From Gammaproteobacteria bacterium (lineage in GTDB: Bacteria; Pseudomonadota; Gammaproteobacteria; JBCCGL01): a stretch of DNA of 64,000 nt. The number at the start of each line of letters is the position of its first letter. Within the stretch, counting starts at the first letter, position 1. The stretch spans positions 3,744,001-3,808,000 of the forward strand of contig OZ255836.1 of assembly GCA_965277715.1 (NCBI GenBank), written 5' to 3'. Position numbers and translations under genes: made by a program. Under the pieces are notes generated by a model that worked only from the letters and a program-made list of their open reading frames with translations, ran no database searches and was not told the DNA's origin. Of this stretch, positions 27,860-63,963 are shown in pieces.

Positions 27860-28100
27860 TCCTCTTGATGATGGTATTTACACCGCCACTAAAGGTTGTG
27901 ATCCCCAGTGGTGGTAGATTGGATCGGGTCACAACAACCGCTCAAGAGACAACGGCCCATCCAAAGGTTTCCCAAAGGATAGCCCAATCCAACCTACCAT
28001 AGAGGCAGGTAGAACTTGACCAGAAGTGCAATGCACTTTTAGTCATTCTCTGATAAGCGGGGTTGTGAGGCCCGGCGTCGGATTTTGCTAACGCCGATAC
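27860..28100. ncRNA. ptaRNA1/type I TA-like structured leader and antisense RNA locus
   Basis: Long stem 27911-27929/27982-28000; anti-SD tcaagag 27942-27948 complementary to ctcttga 27862-27868; ggttgtga repeated at 27894 and 28061. Confidence 0.55.
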
Positions 28101-28530: not shown

Positions 28531-29292
28531 TCAAGGGAAGCATTTCAGTCCATATCCATCGTAACTACTCGCTGAATTCTCACTGCCGTTTTTACGGTAA
28601 AGTTTCCTCTCCAGAATTTCAAATGCTCTATTCTTTTGTTCAGGCCGAATGACGTGTAAACCAATGGGTCTGGCCACCAAATCCGCCAACTGTAAACCGC
28701 AAGAATTGGTTTTCTTATCAGCGAAAATCAATTCAAAAAACCAGCGTTGATTTCGGCGGTTATGATCGTCACAAACATGGCGAAATTCCAGTTCCAGCTC
28801 GTCGTCTTCTTTTTTACCACGGTTCTCTACCACAATATGAGTCAGTAAGCGGTGCTGGTTTTTTTCCTGTAGTAAAGAATACAAATTCTCCAGGCAAAAT
28901 TGAAGCGCAATGTGGTAGGGGTTTTGAGGGCTTTGGTATGTACCCGCCAAACGCCGCTTATCAATCGCCACACTGATAATGGCAAAGTTATGCCGCTCTA
29001 TAATATTGCCTAGTTCCTCCATAAAGGCTTTCTTGATCTCGCGGTTAAGAAAATTGAAACCGTTTTTCTCTTTGCGAATATCGTGCTCGTGCAGCACCAA
29101 CATATCGTGACCAAAATGGCGAAATTTGAATTGTGTTAAAGCTGTGCTGATAGACTCGGCATAGTGTTGTTTATGAAAAACACAAAAGGCCAGCACAAAT
29201 ACCGGGTATTCCAGATTAATACTCGACAGACTATGGTCGCCGCTCTCGTCAACATAGACAATGTAGTTACTCCATTGATGGTCAGTGCTCAT
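28531..29292 (-). CDS. DUF3800 domain protein (RNase H-like fold)
   Basis: N-terminal YIVYVDESGD, PVFVLAF, LHEHDIR, C-terminal GLQLADLVARPIG. Confidence 0.85.
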   Translation of the reverse strand: MSTDHQWSNYIVYVDESGDHSLSSINLEYPVFVLAFCVFHKQHYAESISTALTQFKFRHFGHDMLVLHEHDIRKEKNGFNFLNREIKKAFMEELGNIIERHNFAIISVAIDKRRLAGTYQSPQNPYHIALQFCLENLYSLLQEKNQHRLLTHIVVENRGKKEDDELELEFRHVCDDHNRRNQRWFFELIFADKKTNSCGLQLADLVARPIGLHVIRPEQKNRAFEILERKLYRKNGSENSASSYDGYGLKCFP

Positions 29293-32145: not shown

Positions 32146-32239
32146 ATAAATCCTGAAAGAAAAATAAGCAGGTTTGCTTGATTTTTATATAAATCCCTAC
32201 TAAAGAATCATGATAACTAAACTAATAGGGGGATTAAAA

Positions 32240-34300
32240 ATGGTGAAACAAAACCACCAGGACAAGATAAATACAGGCCGTCGGGATTTCCTGGCTACCG
32301 CAGGTAGCATGGCACTTATGGCTGCCTTTCCACTCGTTCCTAGAGCAGCCATATCGGCCACGCACGGGGAACAAGCGCCTGCCGGGGCTAAGGTTCACCG
32401 CGTTGGGGTTTATCCTGCCATTGGTATCAGCCGTGTAGGCGGTAGCGATGATTATTTTCTTGCCCCTGAAGTGCCTGGTTTGCCACCCAAACCAGAAGGT
32501 GGCTTTAAAGACGGCACCGAAAAAATCAAGAAACAGGCGCAGCGATTCAGGGTCTACGCATTCGACGACCAGGACCGTATTATTGGTGAGATAACCGATA
32601 AACATAAAAAAACAAAAATTGAATGGCGTGTGCATTTAGCCAATACCAAAGCGGCATGGTATGGATTCAATAATCCACTGGATAATGGTCCAGCCGCCCC
32701 AGGGCTTCCTGGACAAAAAAGAAACCAATACTTTGTCTCTGATGAAGAGCGAGAGAAAATGCTCGTAATTAATGGTGGTGAGAAGACTATTTCAGGTCGT
32801 CACACCAATAAGCATGGCGAAGACGAGAATTACGCATTTTCCGGGACGTTTTGGGATAAGCAAACTGTCAAACTGGGGAAATTGATTACCGACCGAAAGG
32901 GGCGGTTAATTGTTGTTCCGCCAAATGGCATCTCCGAGAGCCCAAATAATACCGCGATTACCAGTTTTTCTGATAACGACGGCTGGCACGATGATTGGTG
33001 TGATGGCCCCGTTCAGGCAAGTGTTACATTTGAGGATGGTACAAAGATGGAAGCCGACACTGCCTGGATAGCGTGTATCGGGCCAAATTTTGCACCGGAA
33101 ATTCCGCCTGTCACAACCTTATACGATGTTATTTCTGATATGAATGTAACCGAAGGCTGGACGCCGGAAGTGGCGCCGCCTATCTCTTTTCGCAAGCATA
33201 TTTATCCCATATTTCACCGCCTTGCGCTAATGAAATGGGTAAGCTCAGCCGCCAATTTGCGCCAGGGTTGGTTAGATGTCGGTGATTTTTCTGATCCGGC
33301 CTATCTGAAAAAAATCGCCGATCCAAGTAAGAAAAACCTTCCCTTTAGGGAGGCTCTGTTTAAGAAATTTCGCAACCCCTACAATCACAGTCCTACTGCC
33401 TATCTGGATGAAAGATTAAAAATGCCGATGATGTTGGGCGATGGCATTAATTATGATGGCAGCCCGTTACAGTGGTTTCAATTCCCCAAGCAACAATATC
33501 AATTCTTACGCTATTGGGCTGAAGGGCGATTTACTGATGATATGGATGATGATAAAGCCAACAACATTAACGGGATTGACGATATTGATATAACGCTACA
33601 GCCAAATGCACTGACCGAAGCGGCGCTAGAACCCTGCTCGGGAGGCGCTTTCCATCCAGGTGTGGAACTAACCTATTATTTGAAAATTCCACAGATGTAC
33701 GCACGCGCTTATAACAAAAAGTCTGAAGCGTTTCGATTGGCCCACCACAAACGTGGCAAACTGGTGCAGAGTGTTGGTCGATTACTCACACTTGATAAGG
33801 CTCTTGAAGGCAATCCGGCCTTGGGTGTTACCCCGCCTCTAGGCCCTCAATGGGCAGGTGACCTGACTCGCTGGATGGGGCTTCCCTGGCAATGTGATGC
33901 CTTCAGCTGTCAACAGGTTCTGGTACAGGCAGATTTTCCAACGGCGGTGTGGTGGCCTGCACTCCTGCCCATCGATGTACTGCCAGAAGAAAATTATAAT
34001 CAATTAATGAGCGATAAACTCAAGGCGCCAGAGCGCGTAAAGTTCTACGAAAATCGCGTCGACTGGAAGCGCGGTGTCGCAGGTATCGGCTACCACGCCA
34101 ACGCCAGTTATTGGGACGGCATCACCAATATGATTGCGCTATGGGAAAGAATGGGCTTTGTGGTTAAACGCGAAGGGCCTGAATCTGCAGGCAAAGGCAA
34201 AATGGCCGCTGTACCAAAAGAAATGTATGTTGAAGTAGGCCGTGGAAATGTCGAGTACCGGTTCAAGTGGAAACCGTCCATGGGAGATCTACCAAACTGA
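32240..34300 (+). CDS. goxA: Tat-exported LodA/GoxA family CTQ-dependent oxidase (glycine oxidase-like)
   Basis: GRRDFL Tat motif; YPAIGISRVG, KKQAQRFRVY, HLANTKAAWY, NDGWHDD, GGAFHPG, PWQCDAFSC-x13-WWP. Confidence 0.85.
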   Translation: MVKQNHQDKINTGRRDFLATAGSMALMAAFPLVPRAAISATHGEQAPAGAKVHRVGVYPAIGISRVGGSDDYFLAPEVPGLPPKPEGGFKDGTEKIKKQAQRFRVYAFDDQDRIIGEITDKHKKTKIEWRVHLANTKAAWYGFNNPLDNGPAAPGLPGQKRNQYFVSDEEREKMLVINGGEKTISGRHTNKHGEDENYAFSGTFWDKQTVKLGKLITDRKGRLIVVPPNGISESPNNTAITSFSDNDGWHDDWCDGPVQASVTFEDGTKMEADTAWIACIGPNFAPEIPPVTTLYDVISDMNVTEGWTPEVAPPISFRKHIYPIFHRLALMKWVSSAANLRQGWLDVGDFSDPAYLKKIADPSKKNLPFREALFKKFRNPYNHSPTAYLDERLKMPMMLGDGINYDGSPLQWFQFPKQQYQFLRYWAEGRFTDDMDDDKANNINGIDDIDITLQPNALTEAALEPCSGGAFHPGVELTYYLKIPQMYARAYNKKSEAFRLAHHKRGKLVQSVGRLLTLDKALEGNPALGVTPPLGPQWAGDLTRWMGLPWQCDAFSCQQVLVQADFPTAVWWPALLPIDVLPEENYNQLMSDKLKAPERVKFYENRVDWKRGVAGIGYHANASYWDGITNMIALWERMGFVVKREGPESAGKGKMAAVPKEMYVEVGRGNVEYRFKWKPSMGDLPN

Positions 34301-35397
34301 ACAGCAACATCCACGAGGTGGTTGTTATTGGAGGGGGTATCGCCGCCACTTGTGCGGTGGTATCACTTGCACAGGCCGGGATTAAAAGTCTTTGGTTAAG
34401 CCCCGCTTTCGTTGATCAGCAACACCGGGTAGGCGAATCACTTGCGCCAGCGGCCAATACTCTGTTGGCCGGGTTAGGCTTGTCGGGGTTACTGGATAAG
34501 CCCGCACACCGCCATTCCAACTCGCTGTTTTCAGCCTGGGGACAGGCACTTTTGGTTGAGCGCAATGCGGCTATTCACCTGGAAGGTGCGGGGCATGTCA
34601 TCGACCGCAATCAATTTGAAAAAGATTTGTATCAACGCGCCAGCGAGGTATGCGCACAATTTATTGAGGGAAATGTAAAAAGCTATTCAGTTGAGTCAGG
34701 TGTCTGGCATTTACTCACCGAACAATCGGTAAAAATTCGCAGCCGTTTTTTAATCGATGCAACCGGGCGTGCGCAAAAGATTGGTAAATCTTTTTCGACA
34801 TCCCATACACAGGATCACCTGATCGCTGCGTACTGCTTTCTTAAGCAAAGAAAAAATAGCCAGGTACACGTTACACCTGCCACCCTTATTGAAACTGTCG
34901 AAACCGGGTGGTGGTATGCTTCACTGCTCTCCAGTGGAGAGCTCACGCTTAATTACTACACTGATCCCGATTTAATACCGAAAAAAATTACGACCAGCCT
35001 TGAAAATTGGTTGGCACTAATTGCTCAAACACAGCATATAGCCTATTGGCTGGATGATGCAGAGTTTACCGTTGATTCACCAGCAAAAATAAGCAGTGCC
35101 GCCAGCCGCTGGTTAACACCTGCCGCTGGTATAGAGCAGAAAGCCGCCTGGGCGGCTATCGGCGATGCGGCAGCTTCCTTTGATCCACTGTCTGCGCATG
35201 GTATGACAACAGCATTATGGGCGGCAACGCGTATGCCAGAATTAGTGAAAAAAGCGCACGTACAGGACTATCAGCCTTTGCACGATTATGCCGATGCTGT
35301 CGATAAAGGCGTTCGAGCGTTTCTCGACCAACGAAAAACCATGTACCAGCAGGAAACCCGATATGCGCAAGCCCCTTTCTGGGTGCGGCGTCAATAG
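34267..35397 (+). CDS. goxB: LodB/GoxB flavoprotein for CTQ biosynthesis
   Basis: VIGGGIA, VGESLAP, IDATGR, GWWY, IGDAAASFDPLSAHG; coupled to the LodA-like gene. Confidence 0.85.
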   Translation: METVHGRSTKLNSNIHEVVVIGGGIAATCAVVSLAQAGIKSLWLSPAFVDQQHRVGESLAPAANTLLAGLGLSGLLDKPAHRHSNSLFSAWGQALLVERNAAIHLEGAGHVIDRNQFEKDLYQRASEVCAQFIEGNVKSYSVESGVWHLLTEQSVKIRSRFLIDATGRAQKIGKSFSTSHTQDHLIAAYCFLKQRKNSQVHVTPATLIETVETGWWYASLLSSGELTLNYYTDPDLIPKKITTSLENWLALIAQTQHIAYWLDDAEFTVDSPAKISSAASRWLTPAAGIEQKAAWAAIGDAAASFDPLSAHGMTTALWAATRMPELVKKAHVQDYQPLHDYADAVDKGVRAFLDQRKTMYQQETRYAQAPFWVRRQ

Positions 35398-36962: not shown

Positions 36963-38540
36963 TTGAGCAATAACACACACAATCCCCCTAAAGGCGGCCT
37001 GGTACGCTCTGGCATGGTTGTCAGTGCAATGACTTTTCTCTCGCGGATTCTCGGTTTTGTCCGCGATCAGGTGTTTGCCATTGTGTTCGGTGCCGGGCCG
37101 CTGACGGATGCGTTTGTGGTCGCTTTTAAAATCCCCAACTTTTTCCGGCGCCTGTTTGGCGAGGGGGCGTTTGCCCAGGCGTTTGTGCCGGTTTTCACTG
37201 AATACAAAGAAAAGCGCGATGCCGCTGCACTGCGCGATTTGGCCGCGCATATCTCCGGCACGCTGGGCGGTGTGTTGCTCTTGATTACCACCGTTGGTGT
37301 CGCTGCCGCGCCGCTGTTGATTATGTTATTCGCCCCTGGGTTTGTCGATGATGCTGCGCGTTATGATCTGGCTGTCGATATGCTGCGCTTGACCTTTCCC
37401 TATTTACTGTTTATTTCACTGGTCGCCTATGCCGGTGGGATTTTGAACAGCCACGGGAAATTTGCGATACCTGCGGTTACACCGGTGTTGCTGAATGTCT
37501 GCCTGATTACTGCCACTGTATCGTTTGCCGACCGCACCGAGCCGCCGATTATGGCGGTGGCATTTGGGGTGTTTGTCGCCGGGTTGGTGCAGCTACTGTT
37601 TCAACTGCCGTTTTTAATGCAGTTAAAACTGTTGCCACGGCCACGCTGGCAGTGGCAACACAGTGGTGTGCAGAGGATTTTCAAGCTGATGTTGCCCGCT
37701 ATCTTTGGCTCTTCCGTGGCACAAATCAGTGTGTTGCTGGATACGGTGCTGGCCTCGTTTTTAATCACAGGCAGCGTTTCCTGGCTGTATTTCTCTGATC
37801 GTTTGGTGGAGTTCCCACTGGGTATATTTGGTGTGGCGCTGGCCACAGTGATATTGCCGAGGCTGTCACAACAACACACACAATCAGCGACGGCGGCATT
37901 CAATCACACGCTGGATAATGCCCTGCGGTTGGGGCTGTTGATCAGCCTGCCCTCGGCGCTTGGGCTGCTGGTGCTCGCTGTACCGATGCTGACTACGCTG
38001 TTTCAATACGGCGCTTTTTCCGCACACGATACGTTAATGTCCTCGCTTAGCTTAATGGCGTACTCACTGGCACTGCCGGCCTTTGTGTTAATTAAAATTT
38101 TTGCGCCCGGGTTTTTTGCCCGCCAGGATACCGCCACGCCGGTGAGGATTGGCGTGAAAGCACTGTTGATAAAAATGCTGTTGAGTGTGGCGATTGTTGT
38201 GCCGATGGTTGTGTACAACTACGCGGCACCCCATGTTGGCCTGGCGCTGTCGACCACACTGTTTGCCTGGATTCACGCCGCTATGCTGTACAAAGGGCTG
38301 TGCGCTCACGCGGTGTATGCACCGGGTGCTGGCTGGGGGCGTTTCTCGGTACAGATTGGCGTGGCGCTGCTGTCGATGGGATTGGTGTTGTACAGTGTGT
38401 TGCCTGACCCGGATTATTGGTCGGCCGCCGTTTATTGGCAGCGTGCGCTCAGTCTTATAGGGATTATCGGCGCTGCCGGGTGTCTATACGCGGCTGTTCT
38501 GTATTTGATGGGCTTGCGTCCACGCCACTTCACACACTAA
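36963..38540 (+). CDS. murJ: Lipid II flippase
   Basis: LSRILGFVRD, FKIPNFFRRLFGEGAF, DRLVEFPLG; start uncertain. Confidence 0.95.
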   Translation: MSNNTHNPPKGGLVRSGMVVSAMTFLSRILGFVRDQVFAIVFGAGPLTDAFVVAFKIPNFFRRLFGEGAFAQAFVPVFTEYKEKRDAAALRDLAAHISGTLGGVLLLITTVGVAAAPLLIMLFAPGFVDDAARYDLAVDMLRLTFPYLLFISLVAYAGGILNSHGKFAIPAVTPVLLNVCLITATVSFADRTEPPIMAVAFGVFVAGLVQLLFQLPFLMQLKLLPRPRWQWQHSGVQRIFKLMLPAIFGSSVAQISVLLDTVLASFLITGSVSWLYFSDRLVEFPLGIFGVALATVILPRLSQQHTQSATAAFNHTLDNALRLGLLISLPSALGLLVLAVPMLTTLFQYGAFSAHDTLMSSLSLMAYSLALPAFVLIKIFAPGFFARQDTATPVRIGVKALLIKMLLSVAIVVPMVVYNYAAPHVGLALSTTLFAWIHAAMLYKGLCAHAVYAPGAGWGRFSVQIGVALLSMGLVLYSVLPDPDYWSAAVYWQRALSLIGIIGAAGCLYAAVLYLMGLRPRHFTH

Positions 38541-38551
38541 TCTCTACCCCT

Positions 38552-39490
38552 ATGGAACTGATTCGCGGAACCCACAACCTACGCGCCCACCACCGTGGCT
38601 GTGTGGTAACTATTGGCAATTTCGACGGGGTGCACCACGGTCACTGTGCCGTGCTCGACGGCCTGAAAAAACGGGCCAACGCACTGTGTGTACCCACCTG
38701 TGTGATGACTTTTGAGCCACTGCCGCTGGAATATTTTGCACGTGACAAAGCCCCTGTGCGCTTAATGGGGTTTCGCAGCAAATACCAGCGTTTGCAGGCA
38801 CTAGGTATTGACCGTTTGTTCGTATTAGCATTTAACCACCGTTTGGCCAACAGCTCGGCGGAGGATTTTATTAACGAGATATTGGTCGATGGGCTGGGCG
38901 TCCAGCATATTGTTATCGGTGACGATTTTCGCTTTGGCCATCAACGGCGTGGCGATTTCGCTATGCTGCAAGCACACGGTGATGTCCATCACTTCAGTGT
39001 CGAGCCAACCGGTACTTACCGTCAGGATGCGCAGCGCATTAGCAGCACGCGCATTCGCGAGGTATTGTCGCAGGGTGACCTGGCATTGGCGACCCGGCTA
39101 CTCGGTGAGCCGTTTAGTATTGAAGGCCGGGTGATTCACGGTGACAAACGGGGCCGCACGATAGGTTACCCCACGGCGAATGTTCACCTGCACCGCCAGC
39201 ATATGCCGTTGCAGGGGGTTTTTGTGGTCGAGGCGGTCTGTGCTGATGGCCGGCGTTATAAGGGCATGGCCAATCTTGGCACCCGCCCCACTATCGACGA
39301 TAGCGAACGGGTTTCTCTGGAAGTGAATCTATTCGATTTTGCCGGGGATATTTATGGCCAGCGGCTGCGGGTCATTTTTTACCACTACATTCGGGGCATC
39401 CTAAAATACGATTCGCTCGAAGCCCTGACCGGAGCCATCGCTGAGGATGAACGTATATCGCGGCGTTTTTTTGCTGAACAAGCCCATTAG
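38552..39490 (+). CDS. ribF: Riboflavin kinase/FAD synthetase
   Basis: TIGNFDGVHHGH, GDDFRFG, ISSTRIR, GRTIGYPTAN, GTRPT. Confidence 0.97.
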   Translation: MELIRGTHNLRAHHRGCVVTIGNFDGVHHGHCAVLDGLKKRANALCVPTCVMTFEPLPLEYFARDKAPVRLMGFRSKYQRLQALGIDRLFVLAFNHRLANSSAEDFINEILVDGLGVQHIVIGDDFRFGHQRRGDFAMLQAHGDVHHFSVEPTGTYRQDAQRISSTRIREVLSQGDLALATRLLGEPFSIEGRVIHGDKRGRTIGYPTANVHLHRQHMPLQGVFVVEAVCADGRRYKGMANLGTRPTIDDSERVSLEVNLFDFAGDIYGQRLRVIFYHYIRGILKYDSLEALTGAIAEDERISRRFFAEQAH

Positions 39491-39570
39491 ATACGTCGCA
39501 GCCAACGCAAAACGCGTCGCTGATACGGGCTTGTCTGTACACTGTTCTCACTTACACTTTTAGCTTCACG

Positions 39571-39750
39571 CGATGGTTCTGGCGGGTTTTAAACCTGTCA
39601 GGTAAATGGGAATCTGCACAGTGTGCCAATACTGAAGCAGAGCTGCCCCCGCAACTGTAAACGGCGAGTTGTTAGCGAATAGCCACTGGTGTTCTGTACA
39701 CCGGGAAGGGCGTTAGCGATAAAGACCCGCAGCCAGGAAACCAGCCATCG
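39571..39750 (+). promoter_or_regulatory. Cobalamin riboswitch
   Basis: P1 cgatgg/ccatcg; aatgggaa; ctgcccccgcaactgtaa; gccactg...cgggaagg; B12-box agccaggaaaccagccat. Confidence 0.92.
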
Positions 39751-39847
39751 GCTTTCAATCCACATTAAGGGTGCCGAAAACGTTGCGCGTGCAGGTGTTT
39801 TCCAACCCTTCTATTGTACGACCGGGGTGTGTCGTCGAGGTAAGCTT

Positions 39848-40177
39848 ATGACTGCGTTTAAACTGTATCGAAATCTGTTTATGCACCCAAACTGTGATGC
39901 CCAAAAAATTATCTATTACGCGCTGACCAGTGACGACTTGCACCAGCATGCGCCACGGCAGATTTTAATGTCGTGGATTATGGATTTACCCCAAAATCTC
40001 GACCCGGCGGCGGCGGCCAAAACACTGATCGAAACCTATACGCAGCACCCCGGTTTGGTGCAGGGCGAAGCGCAAAAGGAATTGTTGACGCTGCTGTATG
40101 AGGTCAGTGTTTCAGACCCCAAAAAACAGAAACGCGGGCATGCTTCGGGGCGCAGGCGGCGAAGCTGGCGCAGTTAA
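39848..40177 (+). CDS. Hypothetical protein (109 aa) behind the B12 riboswitch
   Basis: SD gaggt then ATG 39848; helical; Arg-rich tail GRRRRSWRS. Confidence 0.75.
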   Translation: MTAFKLYRNLFMHPNCDAQKIIYYALTSDDLHQHAPRQILMSWIMDLPQNLDPAAAAKTLIETYTQHPGLVQGEAQKELLTLLYEVSVSDPKKQKRGHASGRRRRSWRS

Positions 40178-41374
40178 ATGTTAACCATCGCCGACCTGGA
40201 TCAGCACCTCAGTAACCACGGTAATTTTTGTTTAATCGATTGGTTGCTGCTCGACGGTATTTTGGCGTACAGCGACTATGAAGCCTGGCGCTACGTCCAA
40301 CGCGATCACCTCGATACCTGCCTGGCATTGAAAAAAGGCCAACTGAATACCTTGTTTATCGATGCGAGCACACACTGCCAGTCTCTGGGTTTAGTTGCAG
40401 AAACACAGACGCTTTACCCCTGGGACAAGCAACGGGAAACACCGCTTAGCGCCAGTAGTAGCCGTACAAAGCATCGGCAGTTGACACAGAAATGGCTACC
40501 GGGAAAAGCGGCACCACAGTTAGATTTGTTTATCGATAATGCTGCCGCTATCGCAGAAAACCATTTGCGTGAAGCATTAATAAACCGGCAGTGGGAGAGT
40601 ACCGAGCACTATCTGAATAAAATGGCCGCCCTGAACCCGATGCAGTCGACGCTGGGGGCTTATCAGGGGTTGGTCAGTTATGCTCAACACATGGCGGCGT
40701 GCCCTGATGTGGCCGCAGAGGCTGTGCAAACGGAGTTGTCCGGTCTGGAAAATGAAGTGGAACCGTTGGCGCGTGAGGTGCTCGGTCAGCAGGCGAGGGA
40801 TTTTCTCAGCGTTGCCTGGCGCCGCCTTGCACGGGGCATGAGCGCATCACCTGCCGACCCGGACATAGCGCATAAACACCCGAGTTACGCGCTAATGAAA
40901 ATCCCCGACTGGCAGGCGCTGCAACACTGCCTGCTCGCCGATACGGCGCTTTACCGCCATCCGGTATTGCTCGCACGCCTGGCAACCAGCTATAGCGCCA
41001 CCCGACAAGACCGCAAAGCCCTGCTGCTTTGGTGCCTGGTAGCGGATGGCTTTCCAGAGCAACTGCCCGAACTGCTCGAACAGCACACGCAACAGGCCAT
41101 TTATACGCTGTGGGAAGACTTTCAGGCACTGTTTGAGTACCGGGAGGGGGGCGAGGTGTTGTTTGCCGCGTATGTGGTATTAAAACGCCCCGCGCTGCTT
41201 GCTGTGGGTCACTCGTTTCAGTCGTTGCAACACAATGCCTCTCAGGCGGCTATTGATCTGGCCTTGTGTCGGCAGCAAAACAAGGACGAGATAGCCGCGA
41301 GAGAGGCATTGAAAGCCGCCAGCCCGGTGTTGTTGTCGTCCTATCTAAAAGATCACGGGTCGCCTGCCCATTAG
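40178..41374 (+). CDS. Hypothetical helical protein with a QLDLF motif
   Basis: TAA-ATG coupling to the upstream gene; YSDYEAWR; PQLDLF. Confidence 0.8.
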   Translation: MLTIADLDQHLSNHGNFCLIDWLLLDGILAYSDYEAWRYVQRDHLDTCLALKKGQLNTLFIDASTHCQSLGLVAETQTLYPWDKQRETPLSASSSRTKHRQLTQKWLPGKAAPQLDLFIDNAAAIAENHLREALINRQWESTEHYLNKMAALNPMQSTLGAYQGLVSYAQHMAACPDVAAEAVQTELSGLENEVEPLAREVLGQQARDFLSVAWRRLARGMSASPADPDIAHKHPSYALMKIPDWQALQHCLLADTALYRHPVLLARLATSYSATRQDRKALLLWCLVADGFPEQLPELLEQHTQQAIYTLWEDFQALFEYREGGEVLFAAYVVLKRPALLAVGHSFQSLQHNASQAAIDLALCRQQNKDEIAAREALKAASPVLLSSYLKDHGSPAH

Positions 41375-41418: not shown

Positions 41419-41796
41419 ATGCCCCATCTCACACTCGAATACACCAATAACCTCGATTTACCGGCTGACACTAACGCGGTGTTGCTTGCGCTACACCAAG
41501 TACTGCAAGACGTTGGGGGAATTAATATTGCCAACTGTAAAAGCCGTCTCTATCCGCTGGCGCACTTTTTCATTGCCGATAATCAGCGCGATGAGGGGTT
41601 TGTTCATCTCGATATTGTCTTTGTGCGTGGCCGCAGTGATGCGGTAAAAGCGCAGATCAGCCAGCAGTGCCTGGACATTCTCAAGGCGGCATTTTTACCG
41701 ATGGCGCAAATACCGGTGCAAATTACGGTTAATGTGGGTGATATACCGCTGGAAATGTATAGCAAATACCCGGAGGGGACGTTGACTGTGCAGTGA
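41419..41796 (+). CDS. 5-carboxymethyl-2-hydroxymuconate isomerase family tautomerase
   Basis: MPHLTLEYTNNL (catalytic Pro1), KSR, FVHL, GRS. Confidence 0.85.
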   Translation: MPHLTLEYTNNLDLPADTNAVLLALHQVLQDVGGINIANCKSRLYPLAHFFIADNQRDEGFVHLDIVFVRGRSDAVKAQISQQCLDILKAAFLPMAQIPVQITVNVGDIPLEMYSKYPEGTLTVQ

Positions 41797-41846: not shown

Positions 41847-41918
41847 GGAGCGTGCACGAAATAAATTAAGGTAGATCGACACATTTGCAAACCCCGGAAG
41901 TTATTTCGTACACGTTTC
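41847..41918. mobile_element. 72-bp micro-MITE with IS5-like ends
   Basis: 18-bp TIRs (15/18 match) ggagcgtgcacgaaataa / ttatttcgtacacgtttc, flanked by TTA direct repeats. Confidence 0.55.
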
Positions 41919-41992
41919 TTAGTAGTTGTACGGATAAACACTAAAAACACCGACTAAAAGTACATGCTATGGTTTTTTGTGGGCAATTTTCA

Positions 41993-43978: not shown

Positions 43979-45157
43979 CTATGGTGATACTGCCAGTGAG
44001 TAGCCCCGCAGCCGCTGGGAGAATTCCTGGAGTGCCTGGATACCGCTTTCCTCGGCACGTAGGCACCAGTCCTGTAAATCCTGGTGCAGTTTTTCCTGGC
44101 TGGCACCGGCGCGCTCCCATATCGCCTGCAAACTATGGCGGAACTCATATACCGTTTTTAATGGGTCGCTGGCATTGAGTGCTGTGCTTAACCGGCGGCG
44201 CTGCACGCCGTCCATCAAACCATCAAAGCAAATCAGTGCACGGCGGGCGCTTTTCAGTTTGCGCCCGAGCCGCTTGTCTGCCTGAGCCACTTCCGCCCGG
44301 TGGACGGGTTTTATCACCCGGTTGGCGTAGTGCGCCATCAGGTGCATACGGCTGCGAAAAACCGCTTTGACAGTGTCCATGTCGATGGCCGATTTGTTAC
44401 CGTCAATAATGGGTTTTGGGGCGATGCGCCGGACAGCCGCCAGTTTGCAGGCGCGCAGTAAACAAATATAAAACCAACCCAAATCAAATTCCCAACGGCG
44501 CGAAGACAGGCGCGCAGAGCTGGGGTAGGCGTGGTGGTTGTTGTGCAGCTCCTCGCCACAGATCAGTATCGCCCAGGGCACTACATTGGTGGAGGCGTCG
44601 TCGGTTTCGTAGTTTCTATAACCCCAGAAATGGCCAATGCCATTGATAACACCGGCCGCGAGCAGCGGAATGCAGAGCATTTGTACAGCAAATACGGTCA
44701 GCCCAATCGGGCCAAACAGGGCGATGTCGATCAATGCCATGATGACAATACCGCCGTATTTTCGTGGGGCGTAGAGGTGCTTTTCTATCCAGTCATTGGG
44801 TGTATCATGGCCATATTTTTCCAGCGTATGTTTGTTGCGGGCCTCGTTTCGATACAGCTCAACGCCCTCCAATAATACCTGGCGCAGGCCATATACCACG
44901 GGGCTGTGTGGGTCGTCTTCCACTTCGCAGCAGGCGTGGTGTTTGCGGTGTACAGCAACCCATTCGATGGTGCGCATTGAGGTGGTTAGCCACAGCCAAA
45001 ACCGGAAGAAGTGGCTTACTATCGGGTGGAGGGCCAGGGCTCTATGTGCCTGGCAGCGGTGTAGGTAAATAGTGACTGAGGCAAGGGTAATGTGGCACAT
45101 CACGAGGGTAATGAGGGCGACTGACCATAGGGACAAATCCAGTAAACCAGTGAGCAT
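43979..45157 (-). CDS. desA: Delta-9 acyl-lipid desaturase (DesA-type)
   Basis: His boxes HRCQAH, HRKHH, HNNHH; EFDLGW. Confidence 0.88.
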   Translation of the reverse strand: MLTGLLDLSLWSVALITLVMCHITLASVTIYLHRCQAHRALALHPIVSHFFRFWLWLTTSMRTIEWVAVHRKHHACCEVEDDPHSPVVYGLRQVLLEGVELYRNEARNKHTLEKYGHDTPNDWIEKHLYAPRKYGGIVIMALIDIALFGPIGLTVFAVQMLCIPLLAAGVINGIGHFWGYRNYETDDASTNVVPWAILICGEELHNNHHAYPSSARLSSRRWEFDLGWFYICLLRACKLAAVRRIAPKPIIDGNKSAIDMDTVKAVFRSRMHLMAHYANRVIKPVHRAEVAQADKRLGRKLKSARRALICFDGLMDGVQRRRLSTALNASDPLKTVYEFRHSLQAIWERAGASQEKLHQDLQDWCLRAEESGIQALQEFSQRLRGYSLAVSP

Positions 45158-58357: not shown

Positions 58358-61243
58358 CAATGGCACTAAGTTAAGCCGCTTTAGCTTGCCAATATTCAGT
58401 TTTTAAAACGTTCCGTGGTCGAGTCATTAATGCCTGTGGTTTAGGTCGCCTTTTTACCACTCTTGGTTCAAATCTAAAAGGTCGATGAAGCACACGATCA
58501 TCCGCAATCGCTGCATATAAATAATCAAGATATTGCCGTCTTTTTTGTGCTGGACTCTGCCCACTACCAAGTGATGAAGTGCTTTGTCGGAGTGTTTGCA
58601 AAACACCTTTAAGACTTAGCCGATCAACCGGTGTGTCATGTCGGCATGAAGCGACACACATGATGTGCCTGATCGTGTTGTAAACAATCATGTGCATGAT
58701 GATTTCCTTACGAACCATATCAGGTGTTTTACAGCGTAATATATCCATACCCATGGTGGTTTTAATATTGCGAAAATACAGTTCCACATTCCAGCGCTGT
58801 GCATAGAGGTCGATAATTTCTATAGCGGGATATTGCTGAGCATCAAGTAGTGTCGTGATGATATAAAAATGGTTCGTCCTAAATCCTTTTCGTACAATAC
58901 TGACGTGTATTTGTCGTAAAGTTAAGGTCTTTGGAAGGTCGCTATGCTGCTCTTTTGTGTAACGGGTCGCTTTTGTGTGTTTAGGTTTTTGCCATTCGAT
59001 ATGAAGGTCATTATCGGCTATCTTCTTTTTGGCCTGGGAGGCAGTGCTGGGCGTTCTCCGCGCCAATGTAACGACACTGTCAACCGTTCGTCGAGAGAGG
59101 CAGTCAATATCGTAGAAGCTGCAAAAACCTTTATCACCTAAGAAAATGTCACCTTCATTGAAGGTATCCCATTGTTCTTCTAAAAGTCTTAGCTCATGAC
59201 TTTTTTTATTTCCTAGTGCATAGCTCAGAATTAAACCGCTATAAAGATTAAAACAAGCTAAAAGCCGTGCTTGAGGAAATCCGCATCCCTGTTTTTGTGA
59301 TTTCGGTTGTGGGTAAGTTTGTTGATTCGCGGGCGTATCGGGCATGGATAGGCCTGTCCCATCGGCAACGATAACCGGTCGACCTTGGAGCGCTTTGGGT
59401 TGAGGTGGCGATAATCGACACGTCCCTGAAAATACGTTTTTAAGATCGTCCATGGGTAGTTTTTTAGGTTCTTCCCCGATTATTGTGAAGCCACTGGTTC
59501 CCTATCCAGCTTTCCGCAGTAAAACAAAATACTCCGCCGGTAACTTTCAAACGAACGAAACCCTCTTGCATTCGATTTGACTGTCTGAATTTTTGAATTC
59601 AAACCCTCTGATACGGCATTACTTATTGTGTGCTTAAACCATGTCAATATGTTCGGCATGTGCGTTTTTATCATCTTGGCCACTTTCTTTATGCTGTCCA
59701 ATCGGCACCGAATTGCCCACGCATACCATGCGCTAAAGAAACGCTTTGCCCAACCCGCTGTCTTATACGTCCAAAAATCACGAAACAGTTCTTTTATCGC
59801 CCAGGCTCGGGCTGTCAATAACTGATCATGCTTGAGTGACTCAAAGTGCTCGGCTGCTTTGTTAGACAAATTTTCTTCATTTTTTAACCAGTGATAACGA
59901 CTCTTTTTCAATCGAGTATCACCCTGTGACAAAAGGTCTCTATGTTCGTCACGACGGACCTGATCCACCGCCTTATTCAGGTGTTGGCTAATAGGAAAAC
60001 GGTCGTGAACAATCGCACTGTCTGACAGTTTTACCTCAACGGCATTAATGAACGCAGGCCACCTATCAATAGCGACAGCTTTCACCTGTTCTCGCTGGTT
60101 ATCCGTCAGCGCAACCTCCAACGCCTCCTCACAAGCTGCCTGGGTGCGATCTTTCACTCCATCCAATACTCGCCCTCCATCGATATCATTGATGAGCGTC
60201 ACATAGTCATGCCCTTTACGGTGGGACTTCTCATCAATACCCAGGTACTCAATTGTCACCAATTCCCGACGCGAAAGTCCCCGTTCGACAGCGCGGGCTT
60301 TGATGGCTTCCACTGCGTTCCAGCTAAGTCCCAGTAACTTACGCGCCTCTTCGACGCTACGTGAGGCTTGCAACACCCTGATGGAAAATAATTCAAACAA
60401 CAACGTAAAACGACTGCGCTTGCTTGCCCAGGGTAACATCATACTTTTAACACCATGCTCCAGACAATTTACTCGGGGAATGCGACTGTGTAGGCGCGTT
60501 TCAAACTGCATAATATCCAGGTGTCTCCAGGATCGCTCTTGTGAACGGTGATCATAGAACGGACTCACTTCGCCACAGTGCGAGCAAGGGCCGTGGTTGC
60601 CGCTAAACGCCAACGAAATGGATACTTTTAACCCTGAAGGGTCTAAATCAACTGATGTCACTGACCAGTCATCTGTCAGGCATAGGAGCTGGCTGTAGTG
60701 TTCTTCAAGGCTCGATAGCACCGGAGTCTCTCAATAGCAAAGGAGGATGAAATACTATAACCTCACACAAACCGGGGAAGAACCGTTTTTTACGTGCTTG
60801 GCAATAGGCGGAGGTGGATGATGAAGGTATGGGAATGCCTTGGTTGTGGGCGACATTTTGCAGTTGTCTAACGACTTCTTTACAGCCACCATCGGCGTTC
60901 ATTATTTGTGAAAAAAACAACCAGAAAGTATTTTCTTTACTGAAAATACGTCGACGACTATTCACACCAAAATCATTCGGTTTAAGAATATTCGTGGGTA
61001 TAATATCGCCAAGAAAAACAGGTAGTTCACTCAGTGATTTGTGACGTATTTTTGCTATCTTATCGTGCAAGATTTGAATGGCTGAACGGGGTGTTTTGCG
61101 GAGTGTTTGGATGTTGAATCCGGGTAGAAATAAGGTTGTATTTTTCATACAAAATTATAACATTTCAGCCTTTTTTATTGGGTTTATTACAGTTATTTTT
61201 TCGTTTATTTTACCCGCTAAAACCGCTTAACTTAGTGCCATTG
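58358..61243 (-). mobile_element. IS4-family element interrupted by ISL3
   Basis: 19-bp TIRs caatggcactaagttaagc; transposase halves 61148-60785 and 59458-58371 rejoin in frame (CQARKK-LPMDDL); YAQRWNVE motif. Confidence 0.92.
59467..60784 (-). mobile_element. ISL3-family element with full-length transposase ORF (59480-60721)
   Basis: TIRs ggttcttccccg; 8-bp target duplication GTTTTTTA; CSHC zinc finger, LGIDE, SEGLNSKI..ARGFR. Confidence 0.95.
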
Positions 61244-61271
61244 GTCTATCACCCTTTTTGTCATAAAAAGA

Positions 61272-61329
61272 GGTTCCTCCCCGGTTTGTGTGAGGTTATA
61301 GTATTTCATCCCCCCTTTGCTATTGAGAG
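61272..61329 (+). mobile_element. Orphan ISL3 left end (about 58 bp)
   Basis: Near-identical inverted copy of 60727-60784. Confidence 0.85.
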
Positions 61330-62870
61330 CATGGGTGTACCACTAGAATCCTACCAGGAAGCTAATAACGCAATGAATAACACCTGAAAAGAGCCGCCAT
61401 AAGCTACAAATAGTATTTTTTATAAAATTTGTACTGTTTTTTTTATAAACCGATAACACGCTTTATAATTCATAAAATAAATAAAATTATCCAAAAAAAC
61501 ACTTGCATTCACCAGCAGAATTTTTTTTAAAATACCCATTTAATATCTGATTAAATGGGCAAATTGAATATGAACGAAATGATGACCGTTGAAGAATATA
61601 TCACCGAACACTGTAAAATAAGTATGGAAAAAGCAATTGCTGCTGAACGCTTCCCTTTATGGAAAAGATCATGCGATTCCATTGATGACGTAGCTTTTTC
61701 TCGACATGGGTTACTTCACTGTATAAGTCTTGTACATAGTGGTCGTCACTATCTACAGGTTACGGATGAAATATACGACGAGACAATTTGTCATTCAAGC
61801 TATTTTAACGCATTGAAGTCGACAAGACGGATGAAGATGATGCAAGCCATGGAAAAGCAAAGCTATCAACTGCAAAGTGAGAAATTATCTTCTTTGGACA
61901 TTGATTATTTAAAACAATTTCCTGAACTTGAAGAATATCGAGTAGAAGCAGCTGATGGTCATTTTATACAGCATGCTTGTCACACAGAGAAAAATCGTCA
62001 GGGCAACGTCTTCGCAGCAGGCTTTATTCATGCCTTGAACCTCAGAAATGGACTTCTAAGACCACTTTGTGTCGTGACTAACGGTACTGAACGGCACCAG
62101 GAAATACCCGCGTTACGTTCTTATATTGAACAACGTTGTGGCGAAAAAGAGACTTGGCAAAAGCATCTCTATATATACGATAAGGCGGTGACTGATTATG
62201 CATGGTGGGAAAAGCAAAAACAGCATCAGAATTTTATGATTTCAGTACTCAAAGAAAATGCGGTTGCAACTTTTGTCAACTCTATACCCTATGACCAGGG
62301 TAGTGAAATTAATACAGGGGTTGAAGGCTATAGTGTATATAAAAATAAAAAGGTCCAATTTCATATTGTTAAATACCGCGACCCAGAAACAGGTCAATTA
62401 CATCAATTTATTTCAACGCTACCAGAGTCAATTAACCCAGGCACTATTGCTATGCTCTATTACAAGCGTTGGACGATAGAAAAATCATTCAACAATAGCA
62501 AAAGTGATTTCACCGAAAGAAAAGCCTGGTCTTCAAACCTGAATGCGCTGAACAGTCAAATGCGTTTTACTGCCATGGCCTATAATATCATGCGTATTTT
62601 TGAAGAAATATCAAAAACAAAGAACCTGGAATGTATTCATCCATCTGATAAAAAATACACTAAAATGCTTGATAAGAGACAACAAATTGCCCAGAAAAAA
62701 GGCAGCTTTGTTAATCCATTGTTTTTTTACGCTAGAATTACCCGTATATGCTCATTCACCATCCGCTCTCTGCAAAATGCAATAATGACAAGAAAGTCCC
62801 TTAGAACTATTATGCATAGCTTAGTGAGGCATTTAAAACCTCGACAGCCAGGAATTTTGAAACACTGATG
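61330..62870 (+). mobile_element. IS4-superfamily element with intact DDE transposase (61555-62868)
   Basis: AADGHF, IYDKA, YYKRWTIEKSFNNSK (Y-2-R-3-E-6-K); imperfect CAT...ATG ends; AT-rich. Confidence 0.82.
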
Positions 62871-62886
62871 TAACTTAGTGCCATTG
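62871..62886. mobile_element. Orphan 16-bp IS4 terminal repeat
   Basis: taacttagtgccattg, identical to 61228-61243. Confidence 0.85.
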
Positions 62887-63216
62887 GGTGATAGCCACAC
62901 CGTTAGTATTAACTAGGTTGGCGGTAATCGTTGTACTGGCCCCAGCTGCCAAACTGGTTTGGGTTGCTGCCAGCGCGCCTGCAGTAAAGTCGGCACCTGA
63001 GCCATTACCGATTCGTAATGTGGTTGTCCCTGAGGTAGGTGTCCCTGCTACTAGGGTAGTTGATCCTGTGTTGTTATCACTGAATCCACCCGTGCCACCG
63101 CCGCCACCACAAGCAGTTAGGCATAACATCAAAAAAAACAGTGCGGTGTAACGCAAAGCAGCAGTGGTATCGGTCAATACGGTCTTCAGATTGACCTTGA
63201 TTGGGTAGGTTATCAT
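62887..63216 (-). pseudogene. Ig-like (invasin/Big-1 type) lipoprotein truncated by the IS end
   Basis: Lipobox LTAC-GGGGG, Thr/Gly-rich, TSLAAGASTTITANLVN; runs into the IS4 TIR. Confidence 0.75.
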
Positions 63217-63340
63217 AGATTTATATGCCTCTATAGCGAGCGCGTTCCTGAGTTTCCGTGCAGTGTGCCAGTTTTAATAATTAAAATGAAGTACTATTTA
63301 TAGTCTATTGGTATTTATAGGTTTTTTTATATTTTTTCTA

Positions 63341-63963
63341 GGGCCTGTTGACGTTTCACATGGGTAACCAAAGAAAGGAGCATGCCAAGGCGAGCATGCT
63401 CCGATAGTTCCGCTTCAACTTATCATATCGGGTGGCAATCGCTCGAAAATGCTTCAATCGAGCAAACACATTTTTCAACCAGGCGTCGGTATTTGTATAA
63501 ACACCAGTCGATATCCTCATCGCCTATTTTTGAGTTGCTTCGCCGTGGAATAACCGGAACTGACTTTTTCTGTCTAATCTGATGGCGTAACGCTTCGCTG
63601 TCATACCCTTTGTCAGCCACCACATACTCGCTTTTTGGCAAGGCATCAATCACTTCAGGAGCTGCTGTGGAGTCATTAACCTGCCCAGCAGTGATGTCAA
63701 ATAATACGGGCAACCCAAACCCATCTACAATCATGTGTATTTTCGTTGTTTTCCCGCCTCGTTGCCAATGGCTTGATTTTCACGCCCTCTAGCCCTGCGC
63801 TATGTTGGTGTGCCTTCACAATACTTCCATCAATAAATGCCCATTCTTGATCGGGTTCTTCGACAAGCGCATGGAAAATGTTCATTTTTATTGTTTTTCG
63901 TACATCCAATGATACGAATTTGCCTTTTGTTTCAAAAGCTTATAGCCAAACGTCAACAGGCCC
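63341..63963 (-). mobile_element. Degenerate IS5-family element (623 bp)
   Basis: 16-bp TIRs gggcctgttgacgttt, TA duplication; frameshifted IDGSIVKAHQHSAG, VADKGYDS, YKYRRLVE. Confidence 0.9.

Follow-up and report, generated by a model that had tools for sequence, protein, structure and literature searches.

A cobalamin riboswitch cassette for a small helical protein and its junction with a gene of an SNF2-linked family in a gammaproteobacterium

Results

We have analyzed a stretch of 64,000 nucleotides from a gammaproteobacterial genome (GenBank assembly GCA_965277715.1, contig OZ255836.1, positions 3,744,001 to 3,808,000 of the forward strand), which is referred to here as the window. In the window a cobalamin (vitamin B12) riboswitch stands in front of two adjoining genes. 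The first of these (39848..40177, +) encodes a protein of 109 amino acids (aa) with a helical core and an Arg-rich tail that ends in GRRRRSWRS. The second (40178..41374, +) encodes a protein of 398 aa composed of an N-terminal alpha/beta domain, an exposed linker motif and a helical domain that may resemble tetratricopeptide repeats (TPR), and it belongs to a family linked to SNF2 helicases. An initial annotation of this DNA had described the arrangement, and all elements that it named are found in the window sequence. The TAA stop codon of the small gene indeed directly abuts the ATG of the 398-aa gene (TAAATG), leaving a spacing of zero. The coordinates given for the small open reading frame (ORF) are right as well; the version reported by the ORF tool (162 aa) begins within the riboswitch aptamer. 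Neither protein matches a Pfam or NCBIfam family at E<=1, which agrees with the earlier view that they are not the usual members of a B12 regulon (BtuB and transport, Cob/Cbi, MetE, NrdAB). PADLOC defence profiles returned no family for either protein, and no description of either family was found in full-text searches of the main text of open papers.

The riboswitch was recovered by an Rfam scan of the whole window at 39557-39763 (+) with 97.7 bits (E 3.8e-23). The gathering score of the model RF00174 is 31.5, and the match spans the full model (1-189 of 189), so that the element is a canonical B12 riboswitch as had been proposed. Its start had been placed at 39571, which falls 14 nt inside the aptamer; the true start is 39557. 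Within the aptamer, GCUGCCCCCGCAACUGUAA aligns to the consensus core of RF00174 and the B12 box GCCACTG (39682..39688, +) matches the conserved GCCACUG of the model. The loop CCCCCG (39646..39651, +) closes a 2-bp mini-hairpin in the Rfam structure line. The end of the aptamer and the ATG of the small gene at 39848 are 84 nt apart. The first part of this expression platform is a lineage-specific spacer (39764..39817, +), of which about 46 nt have no counterpart in G644, one of the two genomes that carry the closest relatives of the small gene. It is followed by the hairpin ACGAC-CGGGGTGT-GTCGT (39818..39835, +), with arms at 39818-39822 and 39831-39835 and the loop CGGGG at 39823-39827; the hairpin is present in the minimum free energy fold and kept in G644. 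Its loop is complementary to the CCCCCG loop of the aptamer. The Shine-Dalgarno (SD) sequence GAGG (39837..39840, +) lies 2 nt 3' of the stem and 7 nt 5' of the ATG, a position that is kept in G644, G526, G795 and G924. Thus, the stem adjoining the SD that had been noticed earlier is present with both of its components.

The small gene is what travels with this riboswitch. A narrow search of 399 genomes of the class returned two carriers of the small gene, G644 and G593, whose orders are represented by one genome each, just these carriers; in the order of G002 the family was found in none of 380 genomes. A broad family profile was applied at a wider scale: run on 800 sampled genomes (the class sample of 399 and a phylum sample of 401), it matched in 8 and 12 genomes, respectively, or 20 of 800. 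Directly upstream and on the same strand, a cobalamin riboswitch of 83-135 bits was found in seven of these 20 genomes, which together with the window makes 8 of 21. Apart from G644 (83.4 bits, 32 nt 5' of the gene) the carriers are G494 (91 bits), G526 (104 bits), G462 (123 bits), G673 (119 bits), G795 (135 bits) and G924 (105 bits), all by Rfam. The 13 matches without a riboswitch comprise eight members of a subfamily linked to glnE, three apparently spurious matches (two with an in-frame stop inside the match, one within a long ORF of at least 747 aa) and two clear members, G593 and G734. Among the clear members of the window's branch, eight of ten are linked to the riboswitch. Judged from this linkage across genomes, the small gene is the real and conserved target of the riboswitch. 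The idea that the riboswitch is a relic of a deleted btuB is ruled out, since the aptamer is conserved with the small gene in eight lineages.

The genes that flank the units of riboswitch and small gene are different in every genome; they are ordinary housekeeping genes and none is related to B12. The next gene lies on the opposite strand in three of the four units covered by the first scan of the set G494, G526, G462, G673, G795 and G924. Differing neighbourhoods and opposite-strand next genes therefore mark the riboswitch cassette as self-contained. The platform is shared as well: a hairpin with a CGGGG loop follows right after the aptamer in six of the eight units, and in five of the eight the hairpin is succeeded by GAGG or GGAG and then by an ATG within a few bases. 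In G644 the aptamer and the platform of hairpin, GAGG and ATG both align with those of the window, which differs by the extra spacer between them. No plus-strand terminator was found in the window between 39300 and 42200, and since the gap between aptamer and gene can be only 14-32 nt in related units, these have no space for one.

Some members of the small family stand in other contexts. In G593 no riboswitch is detectable even at E<=10, and the stop codon of the small gene (L084, 6015-6356) overlaps the start of ileS (ATGA), so that in this lineage its translation may be coupled to that of isoleucyl-tRNA synthetase. The glnE-linked subfamily consists of proteins of about 90 aa of the form DPKGLIRESYRIEG...FLDWALSLP...KRRGGWR (loci L109-L114, L116 and L118; genomes G986, G1123, G947, G886, G866, G967, G1100 and G1097). 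In all eight genomes its gene shares the strand of glnE and directly follows the C-terminal half of that gene, often with an overlap; the subfamily has neither a riboswitch nor a Pfam family. In G795 a serC leader (RF00517, 57.2 bits; L107, 2141-2192, +) is encoded on the other strand, some 120 nt away from the cobalamin riboswitch, and the intergenic region thus holds two divergent cis-regulatory RNAs. In G494 (L097, about 1470-1610) the ATG after the platform hairpin opens a frame of about 47 codons that differs from that of the homologous ORF with its start at 1528; a frameshift in the metagenome-assembled genome, a leader ORF or another start could explain this.

The two ORFs of the window are real genes: for the small protein there are 15 close relatives (66-83% identity), and the large family comprises 137 related loci. 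For the small ORF we have weighed whether it might lack a functional protein product and serve the riboswitch or the downstream gene as a leader or regulatory ORF instead. Short length, the lack of a known domain and the middling confidence of its predicted fold (mean predicted local distance difference test, pLDDT, of 69.4) would fit such a leader, yet the helical core itself is predicted at a pLDDT of 73-86, the alignment of 16 sequences has a mean column identity of 79% with 44 invariant positions, and variants between populations in the small gene are synonymous in three cases and non-synonymous in none. A leader ORF would also hardly account for the core W-L-x-x-L-P...P-x-x-A-A, which distant homologues retain together with D17, W43, A56 and A57. 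We consider this alternative very improbable and treat the small ORF as a protein-coding gene. The distant homologues come from a full hidden Markov model (HMM) search of 1.84 billion representatives that gave 26 matches at E<=0.001, about 20 of them proteins of 96-163 aa. For 21-22 distant members there is no Pfam or NCBIfam match, and for 11 more no Pfam match. Since some of them are without the basic tail, this tail is not a defining feature of the family. A Foldseek search of the small protein against the PDB found nothing (best E 1.6), the ESM Atlas gave unnamed clusters only (0.89), and of 384 pattern matches to the family in JGI metagenomes none was confirmed. By its sequence context, the small protein counts as a newly recognised addition to the B12 regulon that has no annotation.

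The 398-aa protein has a different history. A word-seeded search returned 11 relatives; one of them is 99% identical and nine share 41-46% identity (E 1e-102 to 3e-80), and with one genome per species the family amounts to 137 related loci, of which 80 were kept for neighbourhood counts. The carriers include Cellvibrionaceae, Kangiellaceae, Steroidobacteraceae, Nevskia, Sedimenticolaceae, Thiodiazotropha, Ferrovum and others. In an alignment of 87 members the window protein keeps all 11 invariant columns. Seventy of the 80 loci have an SNF2 homologue upstream in the same orientation; in 69 it is immediately adjacent, and it often overlaps the start codon. Five of the ten remaining loci lie at contig edges with <850 nt of upstream DNA, which leaves L004, L009, L065, L070 and L079 as truly unlinked. 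Two of these five genomes have a full-length helicase orthologue elsewhere (45-46% identity); at E<=1e-30, one of the other three has partial matches only and two have none. All 12 upstream partners that were scanned contain SNF2-rel_dom and Helicase_C, and three of them also match a SWIM zinc finger. The proposed link to DNA replication or repair can be kept in part: the near-constant SNF2 neighbour ties the 398-aa protein to DNA transactions, but the link to B12 is not conserved.

The helicase core of the partner strongly matches the PADLOC models for the defence helicases DpdE and ZorD (PDLC02842, 586-745 bits). These matches cover the helicase half of the partner only, and all NCBIfam equivalog models for such helicases (DpdE, ZorD, DrmD) score far under their cut-offs; the two best models reach 412-471 bits where 1100-1200 are required. 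Among the mapped flanking ORFs, which carried no annotation, no further Dpd or Zorya genes were seen. We have rejected the pair of SNF2 helicase and 398-aa gene as a Dpd or Zorya defence system, as only the helicase core matches.

The two families do not share their contexts. An Rfam scan of 12 diverse loci of the large family, about 13 kb each, found no cobalamin riboswitch; a tblastn search of the 80 loci found neither the small protein nor the tautomerase encoded downstream in the window; and G644 and G593 are without the 398-aa family. The initial annotation had proposed an undescribed B12-repressed module of two genes, and as one conserved unit this module fails: the 12 scanned loci with homologs of the 398-aa protein have no riboswitch, the riboswitch belonging to the small family instead, and the gene pair is not conserved. 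The TAAATG juxtaposition, the lack of a terminator between the genes and the stability of the arrangement in contigs of three studies could be taken to mean that small and large gene form one functionally coupled unit after all. However, the families never occur together elsewhere (no small gene in the 80 large-gene loci, no 398-aa gene in the two closest small-gene genomes, no riboswitch in the 12 loci scanned), and each has its own setting: the large gene stands with SNF2, and the small one forms a standalone cassette or accompanies ileS. A single conserved module is in our judgement highly improbable. Each family occurs without the other in a conserved context of its own, and therefore the two genes are not a conserved pair.

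How the 398-aa gene is expressed in the window can be read from the junction. There is no SD-like sequence before its ATG, a simple promoter scan found no promoter-like site on the plus strand between 39408 and 41986, and the terminator-like hairpin with a T-run that ends the small gene in G644, where ileS-lspA-ispH follow, is missing. As there is no SD, the spacing is zero and the G644-type terminator is gone, co-transcription and translational coupling are likely; the 398-aa gene is thus probably co-transcribed with the small gene, translationally coupled to it and hence B12-repressed. As far as the compared loci tell, this wiring to B12 is peculiar to the lineage of the window. A gene for a CHMI-type tautomerase (41419..41796, +; PF02962, 66.7 bits) starts 44 nt 3' of the 398-aa gene and is possibly co-transcribed with the upstream genes. 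That the cassette is monocistronic in most other genomes, and closed by a hairpin in G644, might indicate that the riboswitch governs the small gene only, with the 398-aa gene and the tautomerase expressed independently of B12 from a promoter of their own inside or after the small gene; yet it is this very hairpin that the window has lost. Weak or non-sigma-70 promoters would escape the simple scan that found none, and a translational riboswitch need not reduce the downstream mRNA, but the zero spacing and the lack of an SD point to dependence of the 398-aa gene on upstream translation. We therefore regard separate expression as unlikely and keep to coupling as the preferred reading.

The 398-aa protein carries the sequence PQLDLF at residues 113-118 (40514..40531, +), a linear motif of the type that binds the beta sliding clamp; its QLDLF (residues 114-118, 40517-40531) corresponds to the clamp-binding consensus QL[SD]LF, for which QMDLF and QLDLL are tolerated variants. 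In the family alignment Q-[LMF]-D-L-[FL] is found in 87 of 87 sequences. Q114 and D116 are present in all 87, L117 in 86, P113 in 81 and F118 in 78 (L in the other nine), and position 115 is L, M or F. An AlphaFold2 model built from the 87-sequence alignment (mean pLDDT 92.4, predicted template modelling score, pTM, 0.88) consists of an alpha/beta domain (1-108), an unstructured segment (109-120) and an all-helical domain (121-398). The only block of low confidence is 111-120, with a mean pLDDT of 56. The earlier prediction of a conserved QLDLF in an exposed linker thus holds. Fold searches gave little else. Foldseek found nothing in the PDB at E<=0.001 and the family profile matched no PDB sequence at E<=1. 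A wide VIA search returned generic helical repeats only, for residues 115-349; the best hit was a designed helical cage (Z 9.7, root-mean-square deviation 4.0, 117 aligned), followed by generic TPR chains at Z 5.5-7.7, scores that are within the range common for helical repeats. The ESM Atlas places the protein with its own family and with TPR-type clusters (0.86). No Pfam TPR profile matches the window protein, and any one TPR-type model matches at most four of the 87 members.

Co-folding with DnaN, which had been suggested as a check, was carried out for a relative, with DnaN of the isolate genome G004 and residues 94-136 of the family member from the same genome (motif PQFDLF). The interaction prediction scores from aligned errors (ipSAE) were 0.60, 0.59 and 0.54, against 0.00, 0.00 and 0.02 for three controls, and the result was graded as weak support. 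Contacts agreed to at least 96% between runs, the partner peptide had a pLDDT of 61-62, and replacing the clamp lowered the score from 0.59 to 0.02. In calibration 116 of 157 solved complexes and two of 215 mismatches attained the mark; scores up to 0.60 comprise only 18 of the 157 solved complexes and both passing mismatches. These counts hold only roughly here because we supplied alignments of our own. The conserved loop might dock instead on the SNF2 helicase or on another partner. Such a role would suit a family encoded with a helicase in 70 of 80 loci, a conservation that reaches past the pentapeptide to D120 and N128, and a clamp co-fold that passes weakly. It sits less well with the match to the clamp consensus including its variants, with the position of the motif in a disordered loop, with the loss of the score when the clamp is replaced, and with the intact motif of family members that have no helicase gene next to them (window, L004, L009). 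We hold helicase docking to be possible but doubtful, and continue with clamp docking as the favoured role of the motif.

The arrangement in the window is not an assembly artefact, because contigs of three studies bridge ribF through the tautomerase. Single contigs from these studies reach from 38900 to about 41890; they are free of indels and differ from the window by 0, 13 and 23 substitutions, and several of the bridging runs are labelled sponge metagenome. Population variants in the 398-aa gene are synonymous in six and non-synonymous in five cases, in ribF in two and two, and in the tautomerase gene in two and none. Both unannotated genes are under purifying selection, and the 398-aa gene is not decaying freely.

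Upstream of the riboswitch lies ribF for the flavin adenine dinucleotide (FAD) synthetase/riboflavin kinase (38417..39490, +; Pfam FAD_syn and Flavokinase), preceded by murJ. The ribF ORF is given from its longest start; as its Pfam match sets in only at residue 57, translation probably begins 3' of 38417. In operon order ribF normally precedes ileS, and for this reason the succession of ribF, riboswitch and small gene looks ancestral. The place held by ileS-lspA-ispH in G644 is taken in the window by the 398-aa gene and the tautomerase gene, and the window holds no remnant of ileS.

Other features of the window deserve mention. An ORF for a fatty-acid desaturase (43979-45154, -) matches an ISL3 transposase in its C-terminal part (residues 271-384), and intact ISL3 and IS4-type transposase genes are found at 58371-63731; the nearby remnants of insertion sequences are consistent with a rearrangement at the locus. 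A short element at 41867-41921, between the tautomerase gene and a convergent gene for an APH-type kinase, is the point where contigs from all four runs break. The summed contig depth rises about six-fold there, and the window contains a single copy of the element, which makes a dispersed short repeat probable. A C4 antisense RNA of the P1/P7 phage immunity type (27907-28004, -; RF01695, 51.2 bits, gathering score 45) adjoins a DUF3800 ORF (28531-29289, -) and several ORFs without a family, and this region is possibly a prophage remnant. At 32210-35394 (+) a gene for a LodA-type L-lysine epsilon-oxidase is followed by one for its flavoprotein partner (weak match of the Trp_halogenase type), a pair for a quinone-cofactor amino-acid oxidase.

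Discussion

Taken together, the locus is probably a lineage-specific chimera of two independent modules, a B12 cassette and an SNF2-linked gene, with the switch and adaptor roles proposed below; we favour this reading with some reservation. The first module would comprise the riboswitch, a CGGGG hairpin set against the ribosome-binding site and the gene of the small helical protein (about 100 aa). The second would be the 398-aa protein, which elsewhere is encoded behind the gene for an SNF2-family helicase. A rearrangement in a sponge-associated gammaproteobacterium would have set the second module right after the stop codon of the small gene.

Kissing-loop translational OFF switches are known for cobalamin riboswitches of the btuB and env8 types. 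From the anatomy of the platform and from these known switches we infer both the direction and the mechanism of repression. When cobalamin is bound, the contact between the CGGGG and CCCCCG loops would lock the platform hairpin and mask the ribosome-binding site, and the small protein would be produced only when B12 is scarce. With the L5-L13 kissing-loop switches (E. coli btuB leader, env8 class) the window shares the full RF00174 aptamer with its B12 box, a hairpin after the aptamer that adjoins the SD and AUG and whose G-rich loop could pair with a C-rich loop of the aptamer, and the lack of a terminator. It differs in its target, which is an unannotated protein of about 100 aa and no transporter, biosynthesis enzyme or B12-independent isozyme, and in the extra spacer of about 46 nt in the platform; its ligand class and its response are predicted.

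Riboswitch-controlled small proteins have recently been reported for cyclic di-GMP (PMC13724677). The riboswitch is reportedly the only evident regulation of these proteins, as it is for the small family described here, which suggests that such a protein relays the ligand signal to other processes. Ligand, phylum and protein family differ, and the cyclic di-GMP proteins are reported to be membrane-associated, whereas the small protein of the window is predicted to be a soluble helical bundle, in the family often with a basic tail.

For the 398-aa protein the most likely role is that of an adaptor. It would dock on the beta sliding clamp through its motif and serve as a scaffold that grips the helicase or another client. 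The clamp partners Pol II, Pol IV, UmuC, Hda and MutS likewise present a penta- or hexapeptide of the same pattern in a flexible region. In the 398-aa protein, however, the motif lies inside the chain, flanked by two folded domains, rather than at an end, there is no catalytic domain, and clamp docking is a prediction. In eukaryotes the SNF2-family fork remodellers ZRANB3 and HLTF are recruited to PCNA. The common theme would be an SNF2 ATPase joined to a docking motif for a sliding clamp. The bacterial motif would sit on a separate partner encoded beside the helicase, and the likeness is drawn as an analogy. The 398-aa proteins form a new SNF2-linked family of probable clamp-docking adaptors.

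Several observations speak against the picture drawn here. The kissing-loop pairing is predicted from sequence complementarity and from known switches, and B12 repression, co-transcription and coupling in the window organism are all read from the DNA. Two clear members of the small family (G593, G734) have no riboswitch, and several distant members are without the basic tail and were found with modest E-values (2.5e-11 to 7e-6). The 64-kb window holds no SNF2 homologue (best E 0.15), and a word-limited search gave no SNF2 orthologue among 25 matches on the 4.29-Mb contig of the window organism; the usual helicase client of the adaptor may be absent or simply unseen there. The clamp co-fold is a weak pass that may reflect a learned likeness to solved clamp-peptide complexes, and it was made with the pair of a relative, G004, in place of the window's own proteins. 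Finally, residues beyond the motif, D120 (84 of 87) and N128 (80 of 87), are also conserved, and the conserved element could serve another partner.

The regulons of cobalamin riboswitches are among the best mapped, and yet in at least eight lineages a family without a Pfam or NCBIfam model follows such a riboswitch as a cassette of its own. The targets known so far are transporters or enzymes; a small protein under riboswitch control would be a novel type of response to B12, and as a candidate for one it can be tested. The 398-aa proteins define a second uncharacterised family, putative helical adaptors with an invariant clamp-type motif that accompany an SNF2 helicase in many gammaproteobacteria, and they offer a handle on the role of the poorly understood bacterial SNF2 enzymes. 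The window itself illustrates how rearrangement in a host-associated bacterium, itself probably dependent on external B12, can subject an unrelated gene to control by a riboswitch. The link from B12 to replication may be an accident of this one lineage. A bolder view, to which we give only a slim chance, is that the small protein is a dedicated trans-acting messenger of B12 status, made under cobalamin scarcity and wired in the sponge symbiont to a clamp-docking helicase adaptor, and that, separately, the 398-aa family is the first bacterial adaptor tethering an SNF2 remodeller to the sliding clamp, a counterpart of PCNA-bound ZRANB3 and HLTF. If this were true, the supply of B12 would directly tune replication or repair activity in the sponge symbiont.

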